Source: Patescibacteria group bacterium (lineage in GTDB: Bacteria; Patescibacteriota; Minisyncoccia; Phycocordibacterales; UBA2100). Taken from it: DNA of 64,000 nucleotides. The notes below the pieces were generated by a model, which was not told the origin of the DNA, did not search any database, and saw only the letters and a list, made by a program, of their open reading frames with translations. Below, piece by piece: positions 14,856 to 28,123 of the stretch (its first letter is position 1; the number at the start of each line of letters is the position of its first letter). Position numbers and translations under genes: made by a program. The stretch covers positions 7,669 to 71,668 of the forward strand of contig JBBTSD010000006.1 in the NCBI GenBank assembly GCA_038064835.1, written 5' to 3'.

Positions 14856-14886
14856 AGACCCTGCAATGCAGGGTCTTGTTTTTTTA
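14856..14886 (+). terminator. Intrinsic terminator between convergent paralogous membrane-protein genes
   Basis: agaccctgca-at-tgcagggtct followed by tgttttttt. Confidence 0.7.
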
Positions 14887-14900
14887 CGACAGTCCAATCT

Positions 14901-15455
14901 TCATCGGGGAACGCGAATTGGCATTTGCGTGAGCGATTCGCGGGGACTCGGGTGGTATCGTGGCGGCATCCGATTGCACGCCATGAGATACTGCGATGCC
15001 ACAAAGAACGCGAGCATTAGGCTTATCACTACCAAATTGAAAACACGATCAGGGTCGGCACTTGAGACCAACCACAACAGTCGGACCACTGTACCCATAG
15101 CAATAATCGCTGTTGTAGAGCGGATAACTGCCGGCTTTGGTTCTTGGAGTGGATTGACCGTGCCAGTTTTGCCAAGTGATTGCTCAACTACCCGCAGAAA
15201 ACGGTCTTCCAAAAATCCTACGAACGGACAAAATGCGACCCCAATCCATGCAATAGGCATAGCCAGCAAGGCGGTTTTCCCCAAAAGAACAGTAGCGCAT
15301 AGCCACACAAGGCTTGTGCACAAGCGCCCAAGAGCATACGAGTTCCAACCGCTATGGTACTCGAGGCGCCAGGCAAGTGGCTCTACTTTGCCAAGTATCC
15401 ATCGGTCGAGTGCAACGACACTTTCCATGAGAGGCTCCCACGCACTGTACTGCAA
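14901..15455 (-). CDS. Integral membrane protein (paralog of 14390-14848)
   Basis: TM-rich with the shared C-terminal QY(I/L)xxCNxxPP(R)Y motif. Preferred over the overlapping + strand ORF 14866-16134, whose first ~230 aa have no coding features. Confidence 0.5.
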   Translation of the reverse strand: MQYSAWEPLMESVVALDRWILGKVEPLAWRLEYHSGWNSYALGRLCTSLVWLCATVLLGKTALLAMPIAWIGVAFCPFVGFLEDRFLRVVEQSLGKTGTVNPLQEPKPAVIRSTTAIIAMGTVVRLLWLVSSADPDRVFNLVVISLMLAFFVASQYLMACNRMPPRYHPSPRESLTQMPIRVPR

Positions 15456-15552
15456 CTATAATACAACAAATATTCTGATTGTAAATAGTTTCGGAGTCTG
15501 TCACACCTGGGGATTTTGCATCGCGTCGATTTTTCTCGTGTATCATGGGTAT

Positions 15553-16134
15553 ATGGAAAAGCGAAAAATTTTCGTTCTGTTGGGAAACCCTGACAAAGAG
15601 TCTTTTACTGCATCACTCGCTCAAACATACGAAGATGCCGCTAAGGGCGCAGGGCACGAAATTAGGCGTATGAATATTGGTGACATGCAATTCGATCCCG
15701 TTTTGCAAAAAGGGTACAAAGAAATCCAAGAGCTTGAAGGACATTTAAAGGAGATGCAGGAGAATATCCGGTGGGCCGAGCACTTCGTAGTGGTATATCC
15801 AAATTGGTGGTGTTCCATGCCGGCAAAACTCAAGGGAATGTTTGACCGCGCATGGCTTCCTGGATTTGCCTTTAATTTCGACAAAGAGACACATGAGGTC
15901 ATTCAGCGTCTCAAAGGAAAGACGGCTCGAGTTATTGTGGTTGCTGGCACACAGAGTCCTTTTATGACCTGGTGGAAGTATGGCGACTTCACTAATGAGA
16001 TTTCACGAGGCATCCTCGGTTTTGCCGGATTCGATGTTGCTGTAACGACTTTTGGGCCTGCAGATTGCTGTCAGCCGTGCGACCGTGATGGCTGGGTAGC
16101 TTGCACCAAGTCACTTGGCGCGGCAGCTTCCTAA
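15553..16134 (+). CDS. Flavodoxin-like fold NAD(P)H:quinone oxidoreductase family protein (Flavodoxin_2; KefF/MdaB/YwrO-like)
   Basis: MEKRKIFVLLGNPDKESFTASLAQTYEDAAKGAGHEIRRMNIGDMQFDPVL and HFVVVYPNWWCSMPAKLKGMFDRAW match the family. Start chosen at the in-frame ATG 15553 inside the long ORF-track frame. Confidence 0.7.
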   Translation: MEKRKIFVLLGNPDKESFTASLAQTYEDAAKGAGHEIRRMNIGDMQFDPVLQKGYKEIQELEGHLKEMQENIRWAEHFVVVYPNWWCSMPAKLKGMFDRAWLPGFAFNFDKETHEVIQRLKGKTARVIVVAGTQSPFMTWWKYGDFTNEISRGILGFAGFDVAVTTFGPADCCQPCDRDGWVACTKSLGAAAS

Positions 16135-16211
16135 GCAAGTTGAATACGCTATACTTCTGACAGCTACCGGCATCTGAAAGGGTGCTTTGTTCGCTACAAA
16201 CGGAGAAGAGA

Positions 16212-17765
16212 ATGTCCGTGCCAGAAGTGGTCATAATCGAGCTTGGTTCCCAGTACACGCTACTTATCCAGCGCTCCTTGCGCGAACTTGGTGTTCGTTC
16301 GGTCGTTTTTGACCCTGTGGGTGCCCAAAAATGGCTGGGTAAGCATATACCCAGTGCCGTAATTCTTTCTGGGGGGGCCGCAAGTGTTTGTGATAAGGAC
16401 GCACCGCAACCTCCTAAAAGCATCTTGTCGCTCAAGCGGATTGATGGTAGGCCAGTGCCAATCCTCGGCATTTGCTACGGAATGCAGTGGTTGGCGCAAA
16501 AGCTTGGTGGGGAAGTACACTCATCGTTGGGGCATAAGGAATATGGCAGTGCCAAAATTCAATTCATTGGACCATCCAACGATCCGGTGTTTGCGGGCCC
16601 ACTTGTGCAAGAAGTATGGATGAGTCATGGCGACACGGTCACGAAAGTACCACCTGGCTTTCAAGTACTTGCCGTTGGCAGGTGGTCCTCAAAAGAACGG
16701 CTATGTCCGCCTGTCATGATGACCGACGGTAGCAGGTGGGGCGTACAGTTTCATCCCGAGGTCACCCACACAGTGCACGGCAAGGAAATGTTAGAAAACT
16801 TCTTGCATAGTGCAGGGTGTAAGAAGGATTGGGTCCCTAGGTCGCTCATTGCTCAAATCCAAGACCATGCGCAGCGAGAAATTGGGAATCGTCGTGCAAT
16901 CTTCGGGTTCAGTGGCGGTGTTGATTCGACAACAATGTTGGCGATACTCGCACCCATCCTCAAAGATCGGCTACTTGCGCTCACTGTTGATGCAGGGCAA
17001 TTGCGCGAGGGTGAAGTTGAAGAGATTCGTGTCCATGCACAAGCGGTTGGCGCGACATTACGCGTCATGGATGTGCGACAAGAATTCCAAGAGGCTCTTT
17101 CTGGGGCTGTAGATGCTGAAGAAAAGCGCAATCTTTTCAAGCAGGCCTACTCACATTGCTTTGTGCGCGCTGCGAAAGAATTTGGAGCTGCAGTGGTGTT
17201 ACAAGGCACACTTGCGCCAGACCGCATTGAATCAGGTGTGACCGGTGGGGTTCTCATAAAATCACACCATAACATTGGCTTGGATATGGGGGACTTGACA
17301 CAAATTCACCCGATAGATCACTTGTTCAAATACGAGATCCGCGCACTTGCACAAGAAATTGGGCTACCGGAAAGTGTGTCGAAGCGACAGCCATTTCCGG
17401 GGCCAGGTTTGTTTGTGCGCATCATCGGAGTTCCCGCGACTCTTGAAAAACTTGCCGTGGTGCGCTGGGCAGATGCTCGCGTCCGCGAGATACTCATCCG
17501 GCACGGAAAGTATAATCAGTTGTCGCAGCTGGTGGTTGCCTATGTTGGGGTAAACACCGTTGGCGTAAAGGGGGATGCCCGAGTTTACGGGGGTGCTATC
17601 GTTGTGAGGGCTGTTGATACGGTCGACTTTATGACCGCAGAGGGGGTCCATTTCTCAGATGAGGTTGAGAAGGATATTTCCAGCGAACTCACTCGCCATC
17701 CAGATATTGTCCGTGTGTGGTACGACCCAACAAAAAAGCCACCGGCGACAACTGAGCTGGAGTGA
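16212..17765 (+). CDS. guaA: GMP synthase (glutamine-hydrolysing)
   Basis: N-terminal class I glutamine amidotransferase (ICYGMQWL...H) then ATP-pyrophosphatase P-loop FSGGVDSTT and a C-terminal dimerisation domain. Confidence 0.9.
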   Translation: MSVPEVVIIELGSQYTLLIQRSLRELGVRSVVFDPVGAQKWLGKHIPSAVILSGGAASVCDKDAPQPPKSILSLKRIDGRPVPILGICYGMQWLAQKLGGEVHSSLGHKEYGSAKIQFIGPSNDPVFAGPLVQEVWMSHGDTVTKVPPGFQVLAVGRWSSKERLCPPVMMTDGSRWGVQFHPEVTHTVHGKEMLENFLHSAGCKKDWVPRSLIAQIQDHAQREIGNRRAIFGFSGGVDSTTMLAILAPILKDRLLALTVDAGQLREGEVEEIRVHAQAVGATLRVMDVRQEFQEALSGAVDAEEKRNLFKQAYSHCFVRAAKEFGAAVVLQGTLAPDRIESGVTGGVLIKSHHNIGLDMGDLTQIHPIDHLFKYEIRALAQEIGLPESVSKRQPFPGPGLFVRIIGVPATLEKLAVVRWADARVREILIRHGKYNQLSQLVVAYVGVNTVGVKGDARVYGGAIVVRAVDTVDFMTAEGVHFSDEVEKDISSELTRHPDIVRVWYDPTKKPPATTELE

Positions 17766-17775
17766 CTAACGATTT

Positions 17776-17810
17776 TCGCGCCTTGTGTCTTAACACGAGG
17801 CGCGTTTTCT
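17776..17810 (+). terminator. Probable terminator after guaA
   Basis: cgcgcc...ggcgcg stem followed by ttttcttgttt. Confidence 0.45.
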
Positions 17811-17870: not shown

Positions 17871-19067
17871 ATGCTGGATTCTCAGGGACATCTTGTGACT
17901 GGAGCAACAGGCTTTATTGGGAGGCATCTTGTCAGAGAGCTGTTGGCGCGCAATGAGCGCGTGTGGATTTTGGTGCGCTCCACCACAACCCAGACGGCAC
18001 ATGATCGGGCACGCGCTGTTTTTAGCACAGCGTTAGATTCTGGATTTTTGATTGTTTTGGAAGGTGATATTGTCAAACCTGACATGGGTCTTGATGGAAA
18101 AAGTCTTGCCGAGCTTTCCAAAGAAAAAATCACACTGTGGCACTTGGCTGCAGATCTATCGTTTTCACCAAAAAAAAGTGCCGTGGCGGAGCGCACGAAT
18201 CGAGAGGGAACCGCGCAAGTTGTTACTTTTGCCAATCGTTACGCCACTCGTCTTATACACATGAGTACGGCCTATGTCTGCGGGGATACGACAAGGCTTT
18301 TTACAGAAAGCGATTTTGATGTGGGCCAGCGATTTCGTAATCACTACGAGCGGTCAAAATTTGCCGCAGAGAAAATAGTGCAGGATCAGTGCGTTGTGCC
18401 TCATCTCATTTTCCGCCCCTCTATCGTGATTGGCGATGCCTACGAGGGTAAAGCAGAGGGGTGTACATTTGGATATTATCGCTTCGCGTTCATGTTACAT
18501 GTCTTTCAGGTATGGCTTTTGACAACACTAAACCGAGGCTCCGTAGGTGCGTTGGTTTTGCGTACACTCGGTACGCGTACTTCATCCAAAGACGATGTGG
18601 TACGAGCACCTTGGCTTCTGGTGCCCTATCCTACAGACGGTTTTGTCGATATGGTGCCGATCGATTATGTGGTCCAGTCTCTTATCCAGACGATGTTGCG
18701 GGCAGAGGCATGGCGCCTAAAAACATTTCATTTGACACAAAGGACTCCTCTTGAATCGCGCGTGGTGATGGATCAAACGATGCAAGACATGGGCATTACG
18801 GGAGTGCATTATCTACAGGTGCCCTCGTGGGTTTTTTTCTCTCTGGTACAGATTCTCTATACAATTTTATGGCCACTACGACCTTACACAAAATCGGTTC
18901 TCTGGTATTTGCCCTATGTTGCGCGACCGTATCATTTTGACCATGCACATATGGACGCACTGGGATTACCTGCTCCTTCTCAGCTATCTCGCGGGTTTCT
19001 ACAACGAATTAATCGTCATGCGAAAGATACGGTTTTCTCAACAATCAGTCTCGATAAGCTTTTTTGA
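17871..19067 (+). CDS. NAD(P)-binding thioester-reductase / fatty-acyl-CoA-reductase-like SDR (NAD_binding_4 family)
   Basis: VTGATGFIGRHLVRELL Rossmann motif, then GDIVKPDMGLDGKSLAELSKEKITLWHLAADLSF, typical of the male-sterility / thioester-reductase family. Extended C-terminus. Confidence 0.6.
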   Translation: MLDSQGHLVTGATGFIGRHLVRELLARNERVWILVRSTTTQTAHDRARAVFSTALDSGFLIVLEGDIVKPDMGLDGKSLAELSKEKITLWHLAADLSFSPKKSAVAERTNREGTAQVVTFANRYATRLIHMSTAYVCGDTTRLFTESDFDVGQRFRNHYERSKFAAEKIVQDQCVVPHLIFRPSIVIGDAYEGKAEGCTFGYYRFAFMLHVFQVWLLTTLNRGSVGALVLRTLGTRTSSKDDVVRAPWLLVPYPTDGFVDMVPIDYVVQSLIQTMLRAEAWRLKTFHLTQRTPLESRVVMDQTMQDMGITGVHYLQVPSWVFFSLVQILYTILWPLRPYTKSVLWYLPYVARPYHFDHAHMDALGLPAPSQLSRGFLQRINRHAKDTVFSTISLDKLF

Positions 19068-19070
19068 TGT

Positions 19071-19838
19071 ATGTATACCATCTCATTAGACAAAATGCGA
19101 AGCAGTAACAAAGATCGTGCGGGAGCCAAAGGAGCGACACTGGGCGAAATAATATCTCTCGGGCTACCTGTTCCGCCGGGATTTGTGGTGACTACCGAAG
19201 TGTGGGAAGAATGGCGTGAAGGTGGTGTCAGTGCTGAAGTGGCGCACGCTATCGAAACAGCAAGCGATCTTCTCAAAACCGAGCGATTTGCCGTGCGATC
19301 GAGCGCGACCGTTGAAGACGGATCTGACTCTGCATGGGCAGGACAATTTCGTACATTTCTTGATGTCGATCAGGAACATCTTGTTGCAAAAGTTTGTGAG
19401 TGCATGGCATCCGCACTACTACCTGGTGCGCGTGCCTATGGAGAGCAGAAGAGTGTTCGTGCCGAGAATGTCCCGGTCGCAGTAGTGGTGCAAGCCATGA
19501 TTCACCCCGCAACGGCAGGAGTCGCATTTTCGATGAATCCGGTCACCGGCAATCGTGACCAAGCACTTATCGAAGCGGTGAGCGGGTTGGGTCTAGGTGT
19601 CGTTGATGGGACACAGACACCGGATACATATATTTTTTCCAAACTAGATAGGTCGGTAGTGTCTATCCAATCGGGTGTGGACTCTTCACCGGGGGTTCTA
19701 CAAGGAGCACACGCGCAAGATATTTTGCAACATGTGCTTACACTCGAAGCGCATTTTGGTTGTCCGCAAGATATGGAATGGGCGTATGCGCACGAAGTGT
19801 GTTGGGTACTTCAAAGTCGACCTGTAACAACTCTTTAG
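19071..19838 (+). CDS. PEP-synthase/PPDK N-terminal nucleotide-binding (PPDK_N) domain protein; N-terminal half of a split PEP-utilising phosphotransferase
   Basis: DRAGAKGATLGEIISLGLPVPPGFVVTTEVWEEW matches the start of the PEP synthase/PPDK and rifampin-phosphotransferase ATP-grasp-like domain. The protein is only 255 aa. Confidence 0.65.
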   Translation: MYTISLDKMRSSNKDRAGAKGATLGEIISLGLPVPPGFVVTTEVWEEWREGGVSAEVAHAIETASDLLKTERFAVRSSATVEDGSDSAWAGQFRTFLDVDQEHLVAKVCECMASALLPGARAYGEQKSVRAENVPVAVVVQAMIHPATAGVAFSMNPVTGNRDQALIEAVSGLGLGVVDGTQTPDTYIFSKLDRSVVSIQSGVDSSPGVLQGAHAQDILQHVLTLEAHFGCPQDMEWAYAHEVCWVLQSRPVTTL

Positions 19839-19841
19839 TCT

Positions 19842-20735
19842 ATGCAAAGATTTCTTTTGTACATCAACGAACGCTTCTCTCCTGTCCAGCTTGTACCCCT
19901 CGCGGTGTTGTTTGGTTGTGCGATTGGTACTCTAGGGCCTACCCTTGCGGGGGTACCAATTGAGAGTTATAGGATCGTCGCGATTATTAGTGCGCTTTTT
20001 CTTTTTTTATTTCGGCTACGAGTCTTGGACGACATTAAAGATCATGGACACGACAGTGTGCACCATCGTGACCGCCCGGGCGCGCGCGGTATTATCGGGC
20101 AACGCGAGCTTGCTTGGACGGCAGGTGCGACAATCGTGCTCGAGGCCGTCATTGCCTATTTGTTTGGCCTCGTGCCTTTTATCGCCTTCCTTGTGATGAG
20201 TGTGTATGCTGGTGTTTTGTTTATAGAAGCTCTTGCTCGTGACCGAATACGGGATTTTTTTACACCGTACATTGTCCTTCATGAACTTTTGCTAGTACCT
20301 TTACTTGTCTATCTGTGTCTACTGGCGGCCGTGCCGATTGTTGCACTCGCCACATTTCCCCTTCTAGCGCTACTCGCTTTTCTCGGCGCCCTCTTTTTTG
20401 CGATCGAGGTTGCGCGTAAACTACGCGCACCGCAAGAAGAGGGGACTGGGAAGGATACTTACACGGCGCAGTACGGGGTACGAGGTGCCACGCTACTATT
20501 GTGTAGTACGGTCTTTGTTGCCTATGGTGCAATGGCCATAATTGCCTCTCAAACTACGCAAAAATCTGTAATTGCGTACCTACTGGGATTTCTTGTCTTT
20601 TTTGCGCTTTGTTATAACGCATTTTATTTTGCCTCTGTTCCAGTGCCAAGAAATGCCCGAGTATTGTTTGTAACTACTGTCGGATCTGTCGCCTTCTTTC
20701 TTGCGCTGTTACCCGGTATGCTATGGCTCTTATGA
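19842..20735 (+). CDS. UbiA-family polyprenyltransferase-like integral membrane protein
   Basis: About 8 TM segments and an Asp-rich motif LDDIKDHGHD (DxxDxxxD) after TM2, as in UbiA-superfamily prenyltransferases. Confidence 0.55.
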   Translation: MQRFLLYINERFSPVQLVPLAVLFGCAIGTLGPTLAGVPIESYRIVAIISALFLFLFRLRVLDDIKDHGHDSVHHRDRPGARGIIGQRELAWTAGATIVLEAVIAYLFGLVPFIAFLVMSVYAGVLFIEALARDRIRDFFTPYIVLHELLLVPLLVYLCLLAAVPIVALATFPLLALLAFLGALFFAIEVARKLRAPQEEGTGKDTYTAQYGVRGATLLLCSTVFVAYGAMAIIASQTTQKSVIAYLLGFLVFFALCYNAFYFASVPVPRNARVLFVTTVGSVAFFLALLPGMLWLL

Positions 20736-22486
20736 TCGAGTCTAAGACTGCAGTGCGCATATACGATAATTCAAATCTCGCTGAAAGTTATGCTGGGGCG
20801 GTCGCACCACTCACGACCTCGTTTGCCAACAGCCTGTATGAAGGAGTGTATCGCCACTTTACAAGTTTTATGGGCGTCAGCACTGCAGATCAGCATCGGC
20901 ATGAAGCTATGTTTTCTCAGATGGTTGTGAGTATTGGTTATCATTTGTACTACGATCTACAAAACTGGTATACCCTGGTTTCATTGCTCCCTGGATACGC
21001 ATACAACAAATCCTTTTTTGAACATATGTTGGGAATTCCTCCAGGAGCAGGCGTAGTCGTTCCAAGTCACGCAAAAAGAAAGAAAGTGCGGAAAGCGCTT
21101 TCCTCGACGCGACTGGTAGTGCAACTTGCAAAAATTGCCCTTGTTTTTTGTGCCATGCCGATTCTCGTCGCGCGCTTTAATCGGCGCTTCGATCAAGTTT
21201 TTAAACAATTGAGTGGAATGAAATTAGCTGAATTGGATTATAAAGAACTATGCAACCACTACCAGAACATGCGCAGAGATTTAGTGCGCCTGTGGCGTGT
21301 ACCCATCGCAAATGACTTTGCAGTAATGGTGAGTACAGGGATCGCTCGTTCGCTTTACAAAAAATGGGCGCTCGATGATGAGTTTGTAACGCGACTGACT
21401 CTCCTGTCGCGGGCCAGTCTCTCAACTCTTGATCCAGGTCGTCTTTTGGTCAAGATGAAAAAACAAAGCGCGACTGATGCGACTATTTCGGCGCTCTTGG
21501 AGAGTCAGACAACAGCGAAAGAAGTCTATAAACGCTTGTGTCGTGAACATGCGGATACGGTGTGTGTAAAAAGTATCATTGCATACATAGCCCAATACGG
21601 TAGCCGTGTTCCAAACGAACTGAAGCTTGAAGCTGCCACATTACACGAGGAGCCAGAGCATATTGTCACCATGCTTCGCGCAATAGGAAATACCGACAGT
21701 GATCTTTTTCAAAACCGGGTTGCGGGTGGGGTTGGGTATGTGCCGTTGCGCATACCTGTGCAAGGGTTTTGGAAACAAAAGTTGCTGGCGTGGATGCTTG
21801 GTTGGGCTAGAGCCTCTATCCGTCGTCGAGAAGAAACACGATTACGGCGCACACAAATTTTTGGACATGCGCGTCAGGTTTTTCTAGCAACGGGGCAGCA
21901 TTTAATGAATGAGGGGATCATTGCATCAACAGCAGATGTGATGTTCCTTACGGCTCAAGAATTGTGCGCCGCGGACGCCACTTTCTTGTGGCGCACCCGT
22001 ATCGACGAGCGAAAAAAGAACATGTCTCGATGGGAGCAAATTTCGATGCCGACACGCATAGAGTCTGCAGATTCAATTCAGGAAATTGAGAAGAAAATTT
22101 TCTCGACTAGTGTCGCATCTGTATCAGCAACAACACCGCACCTCCTTCGTGGCGTTGTTGCTTCGCGGGCAGGGCGTACGACTGTTAGCGGTAAGGTGCT
22201 GGTTCTGCGCGAATTCGATCATAACGCAGACTTTCGCGATCGGATTTTGGTAACACGACATACCGATCCTGGGTGGACAGTGGTGTTTCCTTTGGTACGC
22301 GCCATCGTTGTCGAACGCGGAGGTATTCTTTCACACGCCTCCATTGTGGCGCGTGAGATGGGCATTCCGTGCCTCATAGGTGTGTCTACAGCAACCACGG
22401 ATATTCCGCAGAATGCAGAGATTGATATTAACCTTATCGATGGCCTTCTTTCTATTAGGGATGCTTCAAGGGTAACCATCACATAA
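20723..22486 (+). CDS. PEP-utilising enzyme mobile (His swivel) domain protein with a large alpha-helical central domain; C-terminal half of the split phosphotransferase, with rifampin-phosphotransferase-like architecture
   Basis: The C-terminus ...TDPGWTVVFPLVRAIVVERGGILSHASIVAREMGIPCLIGV is the PEP-utilizers swivel domain with the catalytic His. Confidence 0.65.
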   Translation: MALMIESKTAVRIYDNSNLAESYAGAVAPLTTSFANSLYEGVYRHFTSFMGVSTADQHRHEAMFSQMVVSIGYHLYYDLQNWYTLVSLLPGYAYNKSFFEHMLGIPPGAGVVVPSHAKRKKVRKALSSTRLVVQLAKIALVFCAMPILVARFNRRFDQVFKQLSGMKLAELDYKELCNHYQNMRRDLVRLWRVPIANDFAVMVSTGIARSLYKKWALDDEFVTRLTLLSRASLSTLDPGRLLVKMKKQSATDATISALLESQTTAKEVYKRLCREHADTVCVKSIIAYIAQYGSRVPNELKLEAATLHEEPEHIVTMLRAIGNTDSDLFQNRVAGGVGYVPLRIPVQGFWKQKLLAWMLGWARASIRRREETRLRRTQIFGHARQVFLATGQHLMNEGIIASTADVMFLTAQELCAADATFLWRTRIDERKKNMSRWEQISMPTRIESADSIQEIEKKIFSTSVASVSATTPHLLRGVVASRAGRTTVSGKVLVLREFDHNADFRDRILVTRHTDPGWTVVFPLVRAIVVERGGILSHASIVAREMGIPCLIGVSTATTDIPQNAEIDINLIDGLLSIRDASRVTIT

Positions 22487-22488
22487 CT

Positions 22489-23088
22489 ATGAGAATTCCC
22501 TTACTGGTGTATCCACTTGCTTTGACCGGCTTAGCCTTCAGCCTTTCAGTGACGGCAATTTTTACTGTGGTGCGTGGTCATTTTTTTCTTTCATTTGGGT
22601 TTTTGCTTCTGGCATTTACCTGCGATGTATTGGATGGTTTTCTCGCACGGAGACTTACTGTCGTATCGGTGTTTGGCCGCGTGGCAGACAGTGTCGCAGA
22701 TGTTCCATTATATTTGATTTACCCCGTGTGCGTGATACTGACTATGTACGGCTTTAGCGCAGTCGCATTAGTCGGGTCGGTTATTTTTGTATGTGCAGGG
22801 ATATTTCGGCTCATTAGATTTTCTTACAAAGGATTTATAGGTCATGACGGCACATTTATGTACCAAGGGCTTCCCGTATTCGCCTCACTGCCGTGCATGG
22901 GCATGCTCTTGGCGAGCTATGGATACGCACTGCAGCCGTCTGGTTTTGTAGTTCAATTTGTCGGCGTGTGCGTAAGTCTTCTGATGGTAAGTACTATTCC
23001 TGTACCAAAACCCACCCATCCAACCCAGATTGCGGTGATTGTTAGTGTAGCCTTCAGTGGAGGTCTGATACTCTTATGGATTGGTTAG
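22489..23088 (+). CDS. CDP-alcohol phosphatidyltransferase family protein
   Basis: The signature D-x2-DG-x2-AR-x8-G-x3-D-x3-D appears as CDVLDGFLARRLTVVSVFGRVADSVAD. Multi-TM. Confidence 0.8.
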   Translation: MRIPLLVYPLALTGLAFSLSVTAIFTVVRGHFFLSFGFLLLAFTCDVLDGFLARRLTVVSVFGRVADSVADVPLYLIYPVCVILTMYGFSAVALVGSVIFVCAGIFRLIRFSYKGFIGHDGTFMYQGLPVFASLPCMGMLLASYGYALQPSGFVVQFVGVCVSLLMVSTIPVPKPTHPTQIAVIVSVAFSGGLILLWIG

Positions 23089-24074
23089 CGTATCTTGACG
23101 AGCAACGCCACACCGCTCAGTACGAAAGTCTGTTGTTACGCACTTACAATGATCACCCTGCGTTTGGTCATGCGCGGCTATCCTCTTTCCGACGCTTTCT
23201 TTCTTTGGAAAACCCTGCGCGAGAGTTTGTTAGGTGGAAAAATGTACTGGTAGTGCGCGCAGACGCAATTCACGCTCACGCCTGCATTTCTGTCGATTCG
23301 CGAGACACCGGCGTTGCTCATGTGGGTTTTGTAGACTTTGATTCCGGGCAATCGTGCGAGCGTCTCTTTGAAGCAATTGACATTGCTGCTCGCGACTTAG
23401 GAGCCCACACACTTCGCGGACCAATCAACTTCAATTCCTGGCAAGAATTTCGGTGTATTACACGCGACTCTGGAGCCCCGCCTTTTTTCCTTGAACCGGC
23501 TTTACATGAAAGAAGCGAAATTTGGCGCGGGCATGGATTCATGCCAAAAGTTTCCTACCTTTCTCTTGGGCAAAGTGTTCAGCAGGCGCCTTTTGGAGAC
23601 AGGGAGACACCGGGTATAACCATCGAGCGACTTACCCCAAGCATGGCATTTCAAGCTGTTCCTGGGCTTCATTCGGTGGCGCTGGACGCGTTCGGAAGTA
23701 CCTGGGATTTTATCCCCATCTCGTTGGCAGAATTTTCGTATCTCTACCAACCTGCTCTTGCGCAGAGTGGTACCTTTCTGATTCTTGTTGCTCGAGACGA
23801 GCAACAGAAGATTGTGGGTTTTTTTGTCGGAGCGCCTGATGTATACGACAAGGGACAAAAAACACTGGTACTGAAATCAGTAGCAGTTCTTCGTAGTCAC
23901 AAACGGCAAGGAGTCGGCACCGCACTTTTCTTGGCTGTGCACCGCTTTGCTCTCGCACAAGGGTTTGATCGCTATATTTACTCTACAATGCAGGATGAAA
24001 ATATGGCTATACAGAATCTGGTGGGAGCTGGTGAATTTATACGCGCGTACGAAGTGGGTGAGAAAGCACTATGA
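23076..24074 (+). CDS. GNAT-fold acyltransferase family protein (possibly double GNAT)
   Basis: C-terminal LVLKSVAVLRSHKRQGVGTALFLAVHRFALAQGFDRYIY matches the acetyl-CoA-binding motif (Q/R-x-x-G-x-G/A). Confidence 0.5.
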   Translation: MDWLAYLDEQRHTAQYESLLLRTYNDHPAFGHARLSSFRRFLSLENPAREFVRWKNVLVVRADAIHAHACISVDSRDTGVAHVGFVDFDSGQSCERLFEAIDIAARDLGAHTLRGPINFNSWQEFRCITRDSGAPPFFLEPALHERSEIWRGHGFMPKVSYLSLGQSVQQAPFGDRETPGITIERLTPSMAFQAVPGLHSVALDAFGSTWDFIPISLAEFSYLYQPALAQSGTFLILVARDEQQKIVGFFVGAPDVYDKGQKTLVLKSVAVLRSHKRQGVGTALFLAVHRFALAQGFDRYIYSTMQDENMAIQNLVGAGEFIRAYEVGEKAL

Positions 24075-24739
24075 TTTTTGACATAGCGATTATCCTGGCA
24101 GTGTATGGCGGTATTGTCTGTGTTACCGAGATTTTAGGGCGACATGGTGTACTCATACTACTTACCCGAAAGTATGCGCACGCACTTTCCGGCGTTGCGG
24201 CGGCGCTTCTCCCGTTTGCAGTCGAAAAAAATAGTGCGCTGGCATGTGGCATTGTTGGTGCAATTATCTTAGGATTTCTTGTACTGAAAGGATATCTGCC
24301 AGCAATTGGATCTCACGGCGTCTTTGATGTGGGCGTTGTTATGTTTCCGTTAGGGTTATCGCTCTGCGCCTTCTTGTTTTGGAGCGACACCAATTTTCTT
24401 GCCTATCAGTATGCCGCTCTCATGCTGGGATTACCCGATGCGGTAGCTGGTATCGTGGGAACGCGGTATGGGGGGAACTTTTTCAAACGCTACAGTACGA
24501 AATCATTTGAAGGAAGCGCCGCTTTTTTTGCCACGGCTTTTTTTCTCTCCATCTTCTTTCTTACTACCGGAGTGGGAATTTCTTTAGGCATTGCGGTCGC
24601 TTATGCGGCGCTTGCAGGGCTAATTCTTGCTGTCATTGAGGGGGTGTCCCGATGGGGGACAGACAACCTCACTGTGCCGCTTGCCGCAGGTACTCTCGTC
24701 TTTTCATTGTTAAAAACTTTTGTAACCGTAGTGTTGTAG
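24071..24739 (+). CDS. CTP-dependent lipid cytidylyltransferase/kinase family membrane protein (CdsA / dolichol-kinase / phytol-kinase-like)
   Basis: 222 aa, TM-rich. The C-terminal DAVAGIVGTRYGGNFFKRYSTKSFEGSAAFF resembles the CdsA signature (K-R-x4-K-[DS]-x-G). Confidence 0.5.
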   Translation: MIFDIAIILAVYGGIVCVTEILGRHGVLILLTRKYAHALSGVAAALLPFAVEKNSALACGIVGAIILGFLVLKGYLPAIGSHGVFDVGVVMFPLGLSLCAFLFWSDTNFLAYQYAALMLGLPDAVAGIVGTRYGGNFFKRYSTKSFEGSAAFFATAFFLSIFFLTTGVGISLGIAVAYAALAGLILAVIEGVSRWGTDNLTVPLAAGTLVFSLLKTFVTVVL

Positions 24740-25258
24740 AAAAATATTGACCGCACTATGCGCTAAAATTCCGGCGCAAAAAAACAGGAGCAATTGCTGG
24801 ACAGGTGGGTGCTCAATAAAATAAATTGCAACAGTTGCCACAAGCACGGAATCAATGTGATCTACACCCAAGAAAAAGAAGCCCAAAAGCCCGCTACCTC
24901 GCCCGCTTTCGGGAATTCCGATTCGTCGTTTCAGAAAACTGTTTGGGAGCTCCCCAAGCATATATACTGCGCCAACAAGAAACCCAGTTAAAACAAAATA
25001 AATTCCTGGGCCAGTGGCAAAAAGTGCACAGAAAGGCGTGAAAACTGCAGATAAGAAAGCAACTGACAGTACGCCGCGAATAGTTTTGCGAGATCCAAAA
25101 ATTGAACTAGACCCAATTTTCCACCCAGCATCAATAGGTATTGTAAATGTAGAAAAAAGGTTGTTGGGTATAATTAGGACTTGATGTACTAGGTTAGCTA
25201 AAAAAAGAGGAATGCCATACACGACAAGTATTTCCATAGGCGTAGTATATATCCACAA
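24710..25258 (-). CDS. CarS-like / DUF46 family protein (CDP-archaeol synthase-like CTP transferase)
   Basis: IPLFLANLVHQVLI...PIDAGWKIGSSSIFGSRKTIRGVLSVAF...LGELPNSFLKRRIGIP...HSAVNIFLQHYGY aligns block by block with archaeal CarS as recalled from memory (PIDGG...GDGKTIRG...SFIKRR). Confidence 0.55.
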   Translation of the reverse strand: MWIYTTPMEILVVYGIPLFLANLVHQVLIIPNNLFSTFTIPIDAGWKIGSSSIFGSRKTIRGVLSVAFLSAVFTPFCALFATGPGIYFVLTGFLVGAVYMLGELPNSFLKRRIGIPESGRGSGLLGFFFLGVDHIDSVLVATVAIYFIEHPPVQQLLLFFCAGILAHSAVNIFLQHYGYKSF

Positions 25259-25308
25259 CTCAAGCGTTTTACTGTTGCAACTTAATCGCTCGGGTCCATA
25301 CTACACTT

Positions 25309-26358
25309 ATGGACCGTATCATGGAGATTTTGCGTGCGGGGCCACCTATTTTAGCCGACAAAACTCTCACTGGTGGCGGGCTCCTTATGGTAGCAATCGT
25401 GGTTTTGGCGACCGCTATTTTTTTACTGATTTTTGCGCATCACGAAAAAAATTGGTTCAAGCATTACTTGGCGATCGCTGTTGGAGTGTTTATTTTTGAA
25501 ATTTTCACCTCACCTATGTGGATAAATAACCATTTAGGAGAGTTTGGCTACGCCTACCAAGATGTCAGCTGGGTACTTACCCTTGGTTGGTCTACGCTTA
25601 TGCTCAGTATTGTATTTGCCGTCGATTATGTCTGGGGTCACCTGCATGCCTGGAAGAGGTTCCTTGGCTACATCGCAGGCATGAGCGTATTTGGCTTTTT
25701 GGCTGAAATGTTGGTGATGAATCTTGGACTGCGTAGCTATTCACCTGAAATAGCACAGGCAATTTCCGGTCTGTATTTTGTAAACACTCCCGTCGATGCG
25801 CTCTATTACATTCCCGTCTTTAGCGCACTTGTCCTCGGCCTGTACAAGTACTGGACGCTCATCATAGACAATCGCGCTGTTGTGCCGATGCGTGGCGGTT
25901 GGGGACGGAGGTTTGCGCTCACTGCCATCGCAGTGTTTCTTTTCGAATTTATGATTGAACCCATGGTAATAAATACGAATTTTCCTGCGTGGTCATACAT
26001 TTTCCACGACATTTCAATCCTACTCACTTTTGGCTGGACTGCCCTGGTGTGGTTCTCAATCTATGTCGTCGAAGCGCTGTGGCCCAATTTTGACCTTAAG
26101 GAGAAATTTTTTCTGTATCTTGGCGTTATAGGTATTTTTGCACTGCCATTCGAAACTTACCTTCTTACGGCAGGGTATCGCATTTACGAAGGTACCTCAG
26201 CCGGTGATGCCTTTAGTGGCATCTTTTTACCATTACTACACACGCCGATTGAAGTCGCGATGGCGATACCACTTTACTTTGCGCTGGTACTGGGATTCAT
26301 TGGTGCTTGGGACATCATGCTGGTCAACCCGCTTATAAGGAGACAAAAAACCCTCTAG
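25309..26358 (+). CDS. Integral membrane protein built from two homologous halves (internal tandem duplication)
   Basis: FEIFTSPMWINNHLGEFGYAYQDVSWVLTLGWSTLMLSIVFAVDYVWGHL in the first half parallels FEFMIEPMVINTNFPAWSYIFHDISILLTFGWTALVWFSIYVVEALWPNF in the second. Confidence 0.5.
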   Translation: MDRIMEILRAGPPILADKTLTGGGLLMVAIVVLATAIFLLIFAHHEKNWFKHYLAIAVGVFIFEIFTSPMWINNHLGEFGYAYQDVSWVLTLGWSTLMLSIVFAVDYVWGHLHAWKRFLGYIAGMSVFGFLAEMLVMNLGLRSYSPEIAQAISGLYFVNTPVDALYYIPVFSALVLGLYKYWTLIIDNRAVVPMRGGWGRRFALTAIAVFLFEFMIEPMVINTNFPAWSYIFHDISILLTFGWTALVWFSIYVVEALWPNFDLKEKFFLYLGVIGIFALPFETYLLTAGYRIYEGTSAGDAFSGIFLPLLHTPIEVAMAIPLYFALVLGFIGAWDIMLVNPLIRRQKTL

Positions 26359-26361
26359 TAT

Positions 26362-26775
26362 ATGCACAGAGCACTAAAATGGCTGGTAATTTTAGGACTT
26401 GTTGCTGCTGGACTTGCGATGGCTATGCCATTTATAGCTGGCTTTTTGATGGAAATTTTATGCGGTGGTGTAGTCGCAATTGTTGGGCCCGCAGCGTACA
26501 TCGGTAATTTTCTGGGCCCTGTTGCTGGCGGAGGTACTGTTGCATTTCTGGTTGGTCTAGTAATCTGGATCGGCTATCTAGTGATTAGGTATGTGCGGAA
26601 GCGCAAAAAAGATGCGACGATTATTAACACTGTTGAAAACGCGCTACACAAGAATATTGCCTATGTTAAATCTGCGCGCGCAGAGGGTATGTCTGATGTC
26701 CAGATACGCACTGTTTTCCATAATGGCGGTTGGAGTGCTGAAGAAACCGATAAGGTTTTCGCACTAGCCGCCTGA
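26362..26775 (+). CDS. Small membrane protein, hypothetical
   Basis: Three hydrophobic helices and a soluble C-terminal tail. Abuts the previous gene. Confidence 0.4.
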   Translation: MHRALKWLVILGLVAAGLAMAMPFIAGFLMEILCGGVVAIVGPAAYIGNFLGPVAGGGTVAFLVGLVIWIGYLVIRYVRKRKKDATIINTVENALHKNIAYVKSARAEGMSDVQIRTVFHNGGWSAEETDKVFALAA

Positions 26776-26782
26776 TAATCCT

Positions 26783-28123
26783 ATGTCGCCCCGTACACAG
26801 ATTCTCTGTTTCGGGGCATTATTTGCTTTTCCTGCACTCGGCTTTTTTTTTCTGAATCTCGTCGATGATAAGCCTCTGCCAAATAGCGACGGTAGTGCTG
26901 TCGTACAGGAGTGGCTTGGAATGTTTACTCTTCTTACGCAAAAAACTTTTGGCTTCACTCCGCCCGTTGCCGCGCGTGCTTTTGGCTATGCCGGAATCAG
27001 TCTGTATGAAAGCGTGCGCTTCGCCACGCCCGGTTCAAAAAGTCTGGCAGGACAGCTGAATGGGCTCGATGCAACTTTTCTTACGGATCTTGATAGTTCA
27101 AAAACATATAACTGGAATATTGTTGCGAACGCAAATTTGGCAACCATGGCACGAGCATTATACCCAAATGCAACCCCTGTGTACCAGAAAAAAGTTGCGA
27201 AGCTTGAGAGAGATTTGCTTGCGATCTATGCGCGCGGGGTTGATTTTCATGTTGCCGCCGACTCCATCGCGCTCGGGGTTACAATTGCAAATGCGGTGAT
27301 CGTATACGCAGAAACTGACGGACAAAGTCTGGCGTACATGAAAAATTTTCCTACAACCTATACGCTGCCAGTGGGCGATGGTATGTGGGTGCCAACTCCG
27401 CGTGCACACAAAGGCGCGCTTCAGCCCAAATGGGGAGATGTCAGGCCATTTTTGCTAAAAAATGTCTCAGAAACCATGCCTCCACCTCCACCTACATACT
27501 CCACAAACCCACTATCTCCATTCTTTCTTGAAGTACAAGAAGTTTATGATGTTGGAAAAAATCTGACCATTGAACAGCGTGCCATTGCTGAATTTTGGAA
27601 CGATGAACCCATGAAAACACCAACACCACCTGGTCACTCAGTTGCGCTATTGCGGCAAGTGCTTGATGAACAGGATGCGACACTTCACACTGCGGCGATT
27701 GCGTTTGCAAAAATAGGTATTGGTCTGCATGACTCTTTCGTCGCTTGCTGGCGGGCAAAATATACCTACAACCTAATCAGACCCATTACTGTCATTCGGG
27801 AGCACATTGATTCGTCGTTCGATATCCCTTTGGACACGCCACCGTTTCCGGAATATCCATCGGGGCACTCTGTGCAATCCGCCGCATCGGCTCGGATTCT
27901 CTCTAATCTTTTCGGCGAGAAGTATCATTTTGTCGACAGAACGCATAATGGGCGCACGGATATGCATGCGGACACTCGCACATTCGCTTCCTTTGACGCC
28001 TTCGCTCGTGAAGCAGCTGAAAGCCGGCTTTATGGCGGTATTCATTTCCGTTCGGCCATAGAACGCGGCTTGGAACAAGGAAGGCTCATAGGAGAAAATG
28101 TGAACAAGTTGGTATTCCAATAG
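26783..28123 (+). CDS. Secreted PAP2-superfamily protein, vanadium-haloperoxidase / acid-phosphatase-like
   Basis: Signal peptide. PAP2 motifs KYTYNLIRP (K-x6-RP), YPSGHS (PSGH) and SRLYGGIHFRSA (SR-x5-H). Confidence 0.65.
   Translation: MSPRTQILCFGALFAFPALGFFFLNLVDDKPLPNSDGSAVVQEWLGMFTLLTQKTFGFTPPVAARAFGYAGISLYESVRFATPGSKSLAGQLNGLDATFLTDLDSSKTYNWNIVANANLATMARALYPNATPVYQKKVAKLERDLLAIYARGVDFHVAADSIALGVTIANAVIVYAETDGQSLAYMKNFPTTYTLPVGDGMWVPTPRAHKGALQPKWGDVRPFLLKNVSETMPPPPPTYSTNPLSPFFLEVQEVYDVGKNLTIEQRAIAEFWNDEPMKTPTPPGHSVALLRQVLDEQDATLHTAAIAFAKIGIGLHDSFVACWRAKYTYNLIRPITVIREHIDSSFDIPLDTPPFPEYPSGHSVQSAASARILSNLFGEKYHFVDRTHNGRTDMHADTRTFASFDAFAREAAESRLYGGIHFRSAIERGLEQGRLIGENVNKLVFQ

Follow-up and report, generated by a model that had tools for sequence, protein, structure and literature searches.

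A conserved Patescibacteria gene cluster as a candidate variant of a widespread bacterial membrane-lipid cassette

A run of ten genes at positions 17871-26775 of a 64,000-nt stretch of Patescibacteria DNA (contig JBBTSD010000006.1 of assembly GCA_038064835.1; hereafter the window, to whose positions coordinates refer unless another locus is named) is, at about even odds (probability near 0.5), the Patescibacteria variant of a widespread bacterial cassette for membrane-lipid synthesis, in which an alcohol would be activated, a UbiA-superfamily enzyme would transfer an alkyl or prenyl chain, and a head group would be attached by CDP-dependent chemistry. Judged from sequence, the near-constant core of this cassette is a UbiA-type transferase, a phosphotransferase of the rifampin phosphotransferase (Rph) type with ATP-grasp and swivelling histidine domains, and a GNAT protein, to which most versions add a putative lipid kinase and an acyl-thioester reductase. 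The more specific chemistry, in which the product is an ether phospholipid made from an activated alcohol, is a tentative proposal of which we are doubtful. A reading made from the letters alone (the sequence-only reading) had described nine tightly packed and partly overlapping genes here; all nine open reading frames (ORFs) are where it placed them, and the conserved unit reaches one gene further, to 26775:

17871..19067, plus strand: thioester-reductase-type extended short-chain dehydrogenase/reductase (SDR), 398 amino acids (aa); Pfam NAD_binding_4, 1e-39
19071..19838, plus strand: ATP-grasp half (PPDK_N) of the split Rph-type enzyme, 255 aa; Pfam PPDK_N, 8e-57
19842..20735, plus strand: divergent membrane transferase of the UbiA superfamily, 297 aa, about 7-8 transmembrane (TM) helices; NCBIfam PRK13592, 2e-14; Asp-rich motif
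20723..22486, plus strand: Rph_4th and swivelling phospho-histidine domain of the split Rph-type enzyme, 587 aa; Pfam PEP-utilizers, 3e-20
22489..23088, plus strand: CDP-alcohol phosphatidyltransferase (CDP-OH), 199 aa, about 5-6 TM helices; Pfam CDP-OH_P_transf, 3e-14
23076..24074, plus strand: GNAT-fold acyltransferase, 332 aa; Pfam Acetyltransf_1, 1e-9, residues 221-313
24071..24739, plus strand: M222, 8-helix membrane protein, 222 aa; putative remote member of the SEC59/DGK1/VTE5–CdsA superfamily
24710..25258, minus strand: CarS-like cytidylyltransferase, 182 aa (start TTG 25258); Pfam CarS-like, 2e-6
25309..26358, plus strand: M349, internally duplicated polytopic membrane protein, 349 aa; probable remote lycopene-cyclase-domain relative
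26362..26775, plus strand: 137-aa protein with N-terminal TM hairpin(s) and a small C-terminal domain, in constant position after M349

Neighboring genes are separated by 2-3 nt or overlap, by 13 nt between the UbiA and Rph genes, 13 nt between the CDP-OH and GNAT genes and 4 nt between the GNAT and M222 genes, and six of the ten proteins, the 137-aa protein included, are polytopic membrane proteins. The CarS-like gene is convergent with the M222 gene, their 3' ends overlapping by 30 nt (24710-24739), and would therefore have a separate promoter inside or just before the M349 gene (intergenic region 25259-25308).

This gene order recurs well beyond the window. Relatives of the UbiA-like protein stand in the same order on four more contigs (Paceibacterota, Woykebacteria and two without a taxon label), and scanning a single genome for each GTDB species, using an Rph-type protein alignment as query, yielded 167 relatives from which 80 loci were kept; the single 587-aa protein as query of genome contigs gave no matches, unlike the alignment-based scan. 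Loci were annotated with hidden Markov models from four orthologue sets, and co-occurrence was counted over 82 non-redundant loci. The full order typical for Candidate Phyla Radiation (CPR) genomes, UbiA–Rph–CDP-OH–GNAT–M222–CarS(−)–(rSAM)–M349–S137, where rSAM is a radical-SAM enzyme and S137 the 137-aa protein, was found in Parcubacteria, Paceibacterota, Woykebacteria and Microgenomates, and a single bin with the label Gammaproteobacteria also has it. Eight non-redundant loci are of this type, including the window and the locus from that bin, and all eight (L006-L010, L017 and L019 among them) keep the convergent layout of the CarS-like and M222 genes. The contig from the Gammaproteobacteria bin (L010, CAZXZY010000031.1, 'uncultured Gammaproteobacteria') carries a complete CPR-type cluster with 40% identity to the window and is probably a mis-binned CPR contig. 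Elusimicrobia have the CPR-type gene set and order minus CarS, and Woykebacteria add the SDR, adjoining a PlsC-type acyltransferase. The ATP-grasp gene is always separate in CPR and Elusimicrobia, in varying position (with the UbiA gene between the halves, or displaced), and its domain is fused to the remainder of the Rph-type enzyme in non-CPR relatives. Synteny of this kind in many genomes puts the adjacency far outside chance, and the suspicion of the sequence-only reading that these genes belong together withstands comparison with related genomes, which rules out chance adjacency.

A reduced core of UbiA, a fused full-length Rph-type enzyme and GNAT occurs in some 70 further species: in Ruegeria, Chelativorans, Hyphomicrobium, Dongia, Desulfosarcina variabilis, Microcoleus, Microseira, Melainabacteria and Bdellovibrionota/Oligoflexia, and likewise in Kiritimatiellales, Planctomycetota, Verrucomicrobiales, Caldilineaceae (Chloroflexota), Spirochaetes and one metagenome-assembled genome (MAG) each of Chlamydiae and Rickettsiales. 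The core is thus spread over many phyla with a different head-group module, its phylum-level range including Alphaproteobacteria, Desulfobacterota, Cyanobacteria, Kiritimatiellota, Verrucomicrobiota and Spirochaetota, and is not specific to CPR. UbiA and Rph genes are adjacent in 74 of the 82 loci, GNAT is present in 68 and M222 in 50. The usual partners of the non-CPR core are a long form of M222, a BtaA-like DUF3419 protein (48 loci), a fatty-acid-CoA-ligase-like protein (47) and an HMG-CoA-reductase-like (HMGR-like) protein (28).

Several of these partners appear to stand in for one another: in non-CPR versions DUF3419 takes the place of the CDP module, the HMGR-like protein that of the SDR, and a DAGK_cat kinase that of M222. 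CDP-OH (12 loci) and DUF3419 (48) never overlap (hypergeometric P(0) = 7e-6), nor do M222 (50) and the DAGK_cat lipid kinase (8; P(0) = 3e-4) or the thioester-reductase SDR (8) and the HMGR-like protein (28; P(0) = 0.03), all three P values ignoring phylogenetic non-independence. This mutual exclusivity suggests non-orthologous replacement, so that the first pair would mark the head-group step, the second the lipid-kinase step and the third the conversion of a CoA thioester to an alcohol. The HMGR-like gene of the Ruegeria locus (L041 7042-8334) matches PF00368 at 1e-109 and falls under the NCBIfam equivalog cut-off; 27 other loci have one. Ruegeria-like alphaproteobacteria would be expected to use the methylerythritol phosphate pathway, and the HMGR-like enzyme never co-occurs with the SDR, which suggests that it reduces a different CoA thioester in the cassette. 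Gene fusions tie the enzymes to one pathway: an AMP-binding ligase is fused to UbiA (828 aa) in a Bdellovibrionales MAG (L020 6539-9025), and DUF3419 to GNAT (671 aa) on a metagenomic contig that bears no taxon label and presumably comes from a picocyanobacterium. In Oligoflexia the cassette is extended by transporters of the LolA-like, MacB/FtsX and MMPL/sterol-sensing types, as one would expect if the product is a membrane lipid, and in Microseira the order is radical SAM–349aa–small protein–UbiA–Rph–DUF3419–GNAT.

The confinement of the CDP module to CPR and Elusimicrobia, set beside a cosmopolitan UbiA/Rph/GNAT set, could also mean that two independent modules lie together: a CTP-driven salvage of scavenged host diacylglycerol or lipid alcohols, running from the M222 kinase through the CarS-like enzyme to the CDP-alcohol transferase, and a separate UbiA/Rph/GNAT module. 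Kinase, cytidylyltransferase and CDP-alcohol transferase would make a self-sufficient logical chain, and DGK1, which belongs to the family of M222, is a CTP-dependent diacylglycerol kinase. CPR bacteria are also thought to depend on external lipids (PMC7242380). However, the genes are interleaved in every CPR and Elusimicrobia locus (CDP-OH between Rph and GNAT, with overlaps of 13 and 4 nt), M222 accompanies the core in 38 loci without a CDP module, and the exact exclusivity between the CDP module and DUF3419 argues that both serve the same core. We therefore regard two separate modules as quite unlikely.

At the level of single proteins, the domains named by the sequence-only reading held for seven of its nine ORFs; the exceptions were the 222-aa protein, called CdsA-like, whose link to that family is remote, and the enzyme called PEP-dependent, which is of the Rph type. 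The SDR was correctly recognized as thioester-reductase-like: it scores 136.6 bits against Pfam NAD_binding_4 (cut-off 20.1), matches the NCBIfam thioester reductase model TIGR01746 at 1e-31 (110 bits, under the cut-off of 213), lacks any 19-residue hydrophobic window and is hence predicted to be soluble. Its probable role is the reduction of an acyl thioester, giving an aldehyde or alcohol. The phosphotransferase is indeed split in two, as had been claimed, with NCBIfam PRK06241-type, PigC and Rph matches of the ATP-grasp half confined to the N-terminal third of the models and the 587-aa half matching PRK06241.2-2 at 3e-101 over model positions 321-889 of 898. An Rph_4th domain is precomputed for this protein, and the orthologue columns contain an invariant GG-x-LSH538A, in which H538 is the swivel-domain histidine. 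The best solved relatives of this half, at 1e-38, are 5fbs/5hv1, which we take to be the Listeria rifampin phosphotransferase. ATP-grasp, Rph_4th and histidine swivel domains are thus all present, spread over two genes, and no C-terminal phosphoenolpyruvate (PEP)/pyruvate-binding TIM barrel was found in the split enzyme, whose domains are PPDK_N, Rph_4th and PEP-utilizers. Its scores against the NCBIfam PEP-synthase equivalogs are far under the cut-offs. Because the enzyme is Rph-type and without a PEP/pyruvate-binding domain, it should be ATP-dependent rather than PEP-dependent, contrary to the sequence-only reading. It shares its three domains, and the lack of the TIM barrel, with the Rph and PigC-RedH branch, from which it differs in being split in CPR and Elusimicrobia, in standing always beside UbiA and in a substrate that is presumably a lipid or lipid precursor and not an antibiotic; it also misses the rifampin-specific equivalog threshold (88.5 bits against 999).

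These two enzymes might instead belong to a secondary-metabolite cluster of meroterpenoid or prodiginine-like type, with an ATP-driven condensation as in PigC/RedH, reductive release and UbiA prenylation of a small aromatic. Both split halves do match PigC/RedH models in NCBIfam, among solved structures the SDR is closest to the MxaA reductase (1e-15), a polyketide synthase (PKS) reductase, the AusA reductase domain and the R domain of Mycobacterium tuberculosis Nrp, that is, terminal reductases of PKS or nonribosomal peptide synthetase (NRPS) systems, and non-CPR versions carry AMP-ligases. There are, however, no PKS, NRPS or aromatic-precursor genes, the partners are mostly membrane enzymes of phospholipid type, lipid-export partners accompany the cluster, and its hosts include CPR with very small genomes as well as obligate intracellular lineages (Chlamydiae, Rickettsiales), all of which makes a secondary metabolite very improbable.

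The three enzymes that give the cluster its archaeal look fall short of their archaeal namesakes. For the UbiA-like protein, the match to Pfam UbiA (PF01040) is under the cut-off (0.018; 14.8 bits against 34.2), and its placement in the superfamily leans on its orthologues, of which that of Ruegeria reaches 63.7 bits, while 14 of 19 other matches carry PF01040. The first Asp-rich motif, canonically N-D-x-x-D-x-x-x-D followed by R-P-x-x-x-G, is kept, with D63-[DE]64-x-K66-D67-x3-D71, R78-P79 and R82-G83 invariant in 25 sequences, and the second motif, D-x-x-x-D, is replaced by E189-x-x-R-K … E200 … D205-T-Y, which is acidic and of non-canonical spacing. The best solved match of the family profile is digeranylgeranylglyceryl phosphate synthase (DGGGPS, 6m31; 4e-6 over 251 of 301 positions), followed by chlorophyll synthase; the window protein has no match to the DGGGPS equivalogs PRK12882/12883, and its orthologues do no better than 1.5e-3 to 7e-6, where the cut-offs lie near 300-350 bits.

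The CarS-like protein, annotated in public records as 175 aa from ATG 25237, had been recognized as CarS/DUF46-like without mention that its gene lies on the minus strand. It passes the Pfam CarS-like cut-off (PF01864, 2e-6; 28.4 bits against 22), also matches CTP_transf_1 (5e-6), and misses the equivalog cut-off of NCBIfam PRK04032 (3e-12; 46.9 bits against 148), so that it counts as a member of the family or superfamily and not as an equivalog. A profile of eight orthologues aligns with solved CarS (5guf; 4e-6) so that the K-T-x-x-G, S-F-x-K-R-R and D-x-x-D blocks coincide (sKTlRG/GKTIEG, where E becomes R; SFlKRRL/SFVKRRL; LDQIDS/LDQLDF). We take these to be CTP- and Mg-binding blocks. The CDP-alcohol transferase (Pfam PF01066, 54 bits against 22) carries the signature D-x2-D-G-x2-A-R-x8-G-x3-D-x3-D exactly, as had been noted; it occupies residues 45-71 and reads CDVLDGFLARRLTVVSVFGRVADSVAD. 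Its nearest named families are serine-transferring, namely archaetidylserine synthase (TIGR04217, 4e-18; 65.9 bits against 200) and PssA (TIGR00473, 4e-15; 56.2 against 107); the score against NF038087 is 57.9 against 240, and no serine-specific equivalog cut-off is reached.

These matches bring up the possibility of an archaeal-type ether phospholipid pathway acquired from archaea, in which the three proteins would be DGGGPS, CDP-archaeol synthase and archaetidylserine synthase and would make archaetidylserine-like lipids from geranylgeranyl chains. The cluster and the archaeal sequence do share three superfamilies, possibly in the same logical order, and the best matches represent three consecutive archaeal steps (6m31, 5guf and TIGR04217). 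One Parcubacteria genome was reported to hold homologues of geranylgeranylglyceryl phosphate synthase (GGGPS) and DGGGPS, in a study that found CarS absent in Cloacimonetes and did not describe the present cassette (Villanueva et al., PMC7852524). Against such an acquisition stand the scores, which lie far under the DGGGPS, CarS and archaetidylserine synthase equivalog cut-offs, and the outcome of looking for the enzymes that an isoprenoid-ether pathway would add: neither glycerol-1-phosphate (G1P) dehydrogenase, GGGPS (PcrB) nor geranylgeranyl diphosphate synthase is present in the cluster or among the annotated ORFs of the window. In addition, the UbiA family is found bacteria-wide, obligatorily with Rph and GNAT, and is joined outside CPR by BtaA-like, HMGR-like and fatty-acid-ligase genes; Elusimicrobia, moreover, lack CarS. 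The best reading is that the cluster is not a bona fide archaeal pathway, and acquisition from archaea is unlikely; of the isoprenoid-ether or ether-lipid pathway proposed by the sequence-only reading, what stands is a conserved cluster of lipid type.

The remaining membrane proteins have fewer sequence anchors. M222, which had been called a CdsA/dolichol-kinase-like CTP transferase, has no Pfam or NCBIfam match of its own, and the link exists remotely, at family level: in two sets of relatives, 3 of 15 and 4 of 30 members match PF01148 (best 2.6e-5), with no competing family. Relatives are named phytol kinase, dolichol kinase or SEC59/DGK1/VTE5 by JGI and NCBI, and the motif is D123-A-x-A…G130…K144-S-x-E-G148-S…E190…D198-N-L-x-x-P203. 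A single leucine-rich-repeat match of the family profile in the PDB was judged spurious, and the C-terminal extension of the long non-CPR homologues is unrelated to the CDP-OH, CarS, M349, UbiA and GNAT profiles by hhalign. Because of the names of its relatives, and because the DAGK_cat kinase appears only in cluster versions without M222, M222, the supposed second CTP-dependent activator, is more likely a lipid kinase than a CdsA; as a kinase it would be CTP-dependent. The GNAT protein joins a conserved N-terminal region of no recognized type to a C-terminal GNAT core, and its family profile finds only generic acetyltransferases in the PDB.

A kinase with dolichol kinase relatives could equally serve a pathway for a polyprenyl-phosphate carrier or envelope polymer, in which the UbiA-like enzyme would load a small molecule, activated as a diphosphate by the Rph-type enzyme, onto polyprenyl phosphate supplied by M222, a polyol-phosphate unit would come from the CDP-alcohol transferase together with the cytidylyltransferase, and the product would pass to GT-C-type transferases. 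The model here is the mycobacterial decaprenyl-phosphate phosphoribosyltransferase, and enzymes of that kind are known in the UbiA superfamily. In Ruegeria and Microseira the cluster is flanked by PMT_2 (GT-C) genes, and MraY, MurG and FtsW are encoded elsewhere in the window, so a polyprenyl-phosphate cycle exists in the cell. Yet the CPR cluster is without sugar-nucleotide, PRPP-type or glycosyltransferase genes, PMT_2 is outside the widely conserved flank families, the CDP-alcohol transferase is nearest to phosphatidylserine-type enzymes, and the thioester reductase or HMGR-like, fatty-acid ligase, PlsC, BtaA-like, LolA and MMPL partners suit a lipid better. We consider a carrier or polymer pathway improbable.

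M349 is internally duplicated, as the sequence-only reading had seen: residues 48-188 and 197-340 are 29% identical (E 6e-22), and each repeat has F-E-x4-P-M followed by a later invariant E. The family has remote similarity to the lycopene cyclase domain PF18916 (18 of 58 members). Its constant companion is the 137-aa protein, whose similarity across loci is weak and recurring, and in other genomes carrying both a radical-SAM enzyme is almost always beside the pair; a tblastn search found no such partner in the window. We rejected the radical-SAM partner as a tetraether synthase, as its match to the tetraether macrocyclic archaeol synthase (GDGT-MAS) is only 3.6e-9, no better than to MoaA or SkfB, and regard it as a generic SPASM/twitch enzyme.

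The comparisons show a conserved gene set whose products are mostly membrane-embedded and fall in lipid-enzyme superfamilies, and whose accessory genes (ligase, reductase, kinase, acyltransferase and exporters) are of lipid type. Under our preferred reading of a membrane-lipid cassette, the steps, all drawn from sequence comparison and gene replacements, would most economically run as follows. The SDR would make a lipid alcohol by reducing an acyl or prenoyl thioester, unless the alcohol is scavenged, and M222, resembling SEC59/DGK1/VTE5, would phosphorylate it using CTP. The split Rph-type enzyme would then add a second phosphate, or otherwise activate a hydroxyl, to give a diphosphate donor, and the UbiA-like enzyme would move the hydrocarbon chain onto a glycerol-phosphate-type acceptor to form an ether-type lipid phosphate. 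The CarS-like enzyme would turn this into a CDP-lipid, the CDP-alcohol transferase would add a polar alcohol, in all likelihood serine or another amino alcohol of that kind, the GNAT protein would acylate the product, most economically at the head-group amine, and M349 with its 137-aa partner would modify the chain. In other phyla a BtaA-like S-adenosylmethionine (SAM)-dependent head-group enzyme may act in place of the CDP module on the same core. The constant pairing of UbiA and Rph points to the Rph-type enzyme as the source of the phosphorylated (diphosphate) donor that the UbiA transferase would use. We infer an amino-acid-like head group, for which CPR and Elusimicrobia would take a CDP route and other lineages a SAM/BtaA route, with the GNAT protein acting afterwards beside the head-group enzyme. 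An isoprenoid chain is hinted at by the UbiA membership, the names of M222 relatives, the lycopene-cyclase similarity of M349 and the DGGGPS match of the UbiA profile.

A number of observations weigh against this reading. UbiA enzymes normally require allylic prenyl diphosphates, and no polyprenyl synthase was seen within the cluster; Rph-type enzymes are known to transfer one phosphate to a hydroxyl, and for phosphorylation of a phosphate monoester by such an enzyme there is only the parallel of the Pi to PPi half-reaction of pyruvate phosphate dikinase. The AlphaFold2 model of M222 (pLDDT 90.5) has no significant PDB neighbor, CdsA, CarS or kinase included, and hhalign gives M222 a probability of 2.9% against the CarS profile, with no alignment. 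The ATP-grasp half was not found within 10 kb in several CPR loci, the SDR occurs in only 3 of the 8 CPR-type loci, and Elusimicrobia have a CDP-alcohol transferase and lack the CarS-like gene. To these we add the phylogenetic caveat on the exclusivity values and the predicted status of the substrates, products and activities of all cluster members. In its fullest form, the proposal would have CPR, Elusimicrobia and, with another head-group module, dozens of bacterial lineages making a new class of ether-type lipid through a VTE5-like kinase, an Rph-type second phosphorylation, an ether bond formed by UbiA and a CarS-like/PssA-like finish; this is a conjecture with a small but real chance of being right.

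Parts of the scheme have counterparts in known systems. Plant and cyanobacterial phytol salvage, by the phytol kinase VTE5 and the phytyl-phosphate kinase VTE6, shares a CTP-dependent VTE5-type kinase upstream of a UbiA-family transferase and requires a second kinase for the diphosphate; here that second kinase would be Rph-type instead of VTE6/DUF92, and the M222 assignment is remote. Betaine lipids (BtaA, DUF3419) and N-acyl aminolipids come to mind because non-CPR versions have DUF3419 next to or fused with GNAT, a hint of an amino-acid-type head group with later acylation, for which the PssA-like module of CPR would supply an analogue; by contrast, the window lacks DUF3419, no BtaB methyltransferase was seen, and the anchor would not be ordinary diacylglycerol if the UbiA/Rph core makes it. 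Ether-lipid routes of the fatty acyl reductase (FAR)/ElbD type share the thioester-reductase SDR, which Woykebacteria pair with PlsC, and the fatty-acid CoA ligases of non-CPR versions. Because the cluster is without alkyl-dihydroxyacetone-phosphate synthase and PlsA/PlsR, however, ether formation would fall to the UbiA-like enzyme, and we know of no precedent for UbiA-type ether formation from an activated saturated alcohol. The C50-carotenoid module (CrtEb/LyeJ with CrtYe/Yf) likewise puts a UbiA-family enzyme together with a membrane protein of two repeats, in that case of the lycopene cyclase domain; the cluster has no phytoene synthase or desaturase, and M349 is remote from PF18916 and elsewhere accompanies a radical-SAM/SPASM enzyme.

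As the sequence-only reading had supposed, no textbook pathway matches the cluster, and full-text literature searches and targeted reading, the Lipocone paper included, found no published description of it. The component folds are all known; the combination and the likely product would be new. The sequence-only reading's supposition of a reduced, lipid-scavenging type of host agrees with the genome being CPR/Patescibacteria. CPR bacteria have been described as unable to synthesize membrane lipids, their lipid source being called elusive, and for another aquifer a statistical association was reported between lyso-betaine lipids (DGTS/DGTA/DGCC) and both Parcubacteria and Kaiserbacteria (Probst et al., PMC7242380). 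A BtaA-like gene is found in the non-CPR form of the cassette and not in the CPR form seen here. The conserved operon indicates that some CPR lineages at least invest in building or rebuilding polar lipids, and if the ether-lipid route is correct, then supposedly lipid-auxotrophic CPR would have their own polar-lipid synthesis and bacteria an analogue of the archaeal sequence of DGGGPS, CarS and archaetidylserine synthase. As the core is also present in cultured, genetically tractable Ruegeria, Chelativorans and Desulfosarcina, its product is accessible to experiment, and identifying that product would give functions to several large 'hypothetical' families (the 349-aa, 222-aa and 137-aa proteins and the Rph-type lipid enzyme), probe a new role for the antibiotic-resistance-related Rph fold and feed into the discussion of how bacteria use archaeal-style lipid enzymes (PMC7852524).

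The borders of the cluster are set by the following neighbors:

16182-17765: guaA, flanking the cluster upstream
17777..17804, plus strand: terminator-like hairpin of 12 pairs (8 GC) with a T-tail, between guaA and the first cluster gene
26783..28123, plus strand: PAP2/vanadium-haloperoxidase-like phosphatase, 446 aa; Pfam PAP2, 1.8e-9; 7 nt past the last cluster gene

The hairpin is likely the upstream boundary of the operon. Downstream, the PAP2-like protein could be an operon member acting as a lipid-phosphate phosphatase; it has no counterpart among the conserved flank families of other cluster loci, so that it is possibly co-transcribed and its membership in the cluster is uncertain. Scans of the window for tRNA and Rfam families gave no matches, and a sigma-70 promoter scan gave 7 sites against 13.3 in shuffled sequence, for which reason we claim no promoter. 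The GC content of the cluster (0.46-0.49) is near the window mean of about 0.50, and we make no claim on horizontal transfer either way.

The rest of the window consists of housekeeping genes (ATP synthase, GuaA, YchF, PurC, several aminoacyl-tRNA synthetases, MraY, MurG and FtsW) and a CPR-typical DUF5671. Contigs from Hainich groundwater metagenomes (ENA ERZ1292643, Hain_H51) are identical to the window, and NCBI lists the UbiA-like protein under the tag AAB421_03025 with the label 'Patescibacteria group bacterium'. Two ORFs, at 12479-14050 (plus strand, 523 aa) and 4754-6586 (plus strand, 610 aa), match no Pfam family at E ≤ 0.001. The 422-aa ORF at 14866-16134 (plus strand) is an over-extension according to public gene calls, which have a flavodoxin-like gene of 193 aa (Flavodoxin_2/FMN_red) within its 3' part and, at 14901-15455 on the other strand, a gene of 184 aa. 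Finally, the leucyl-tRNA synthetase at 31521-34364 (plus strand) has an unusual architecture, with a NUDIX hydrolase domain (residues 388-505, about 32682-33035; Pfam 8e-15) inserted just after the editing domain.

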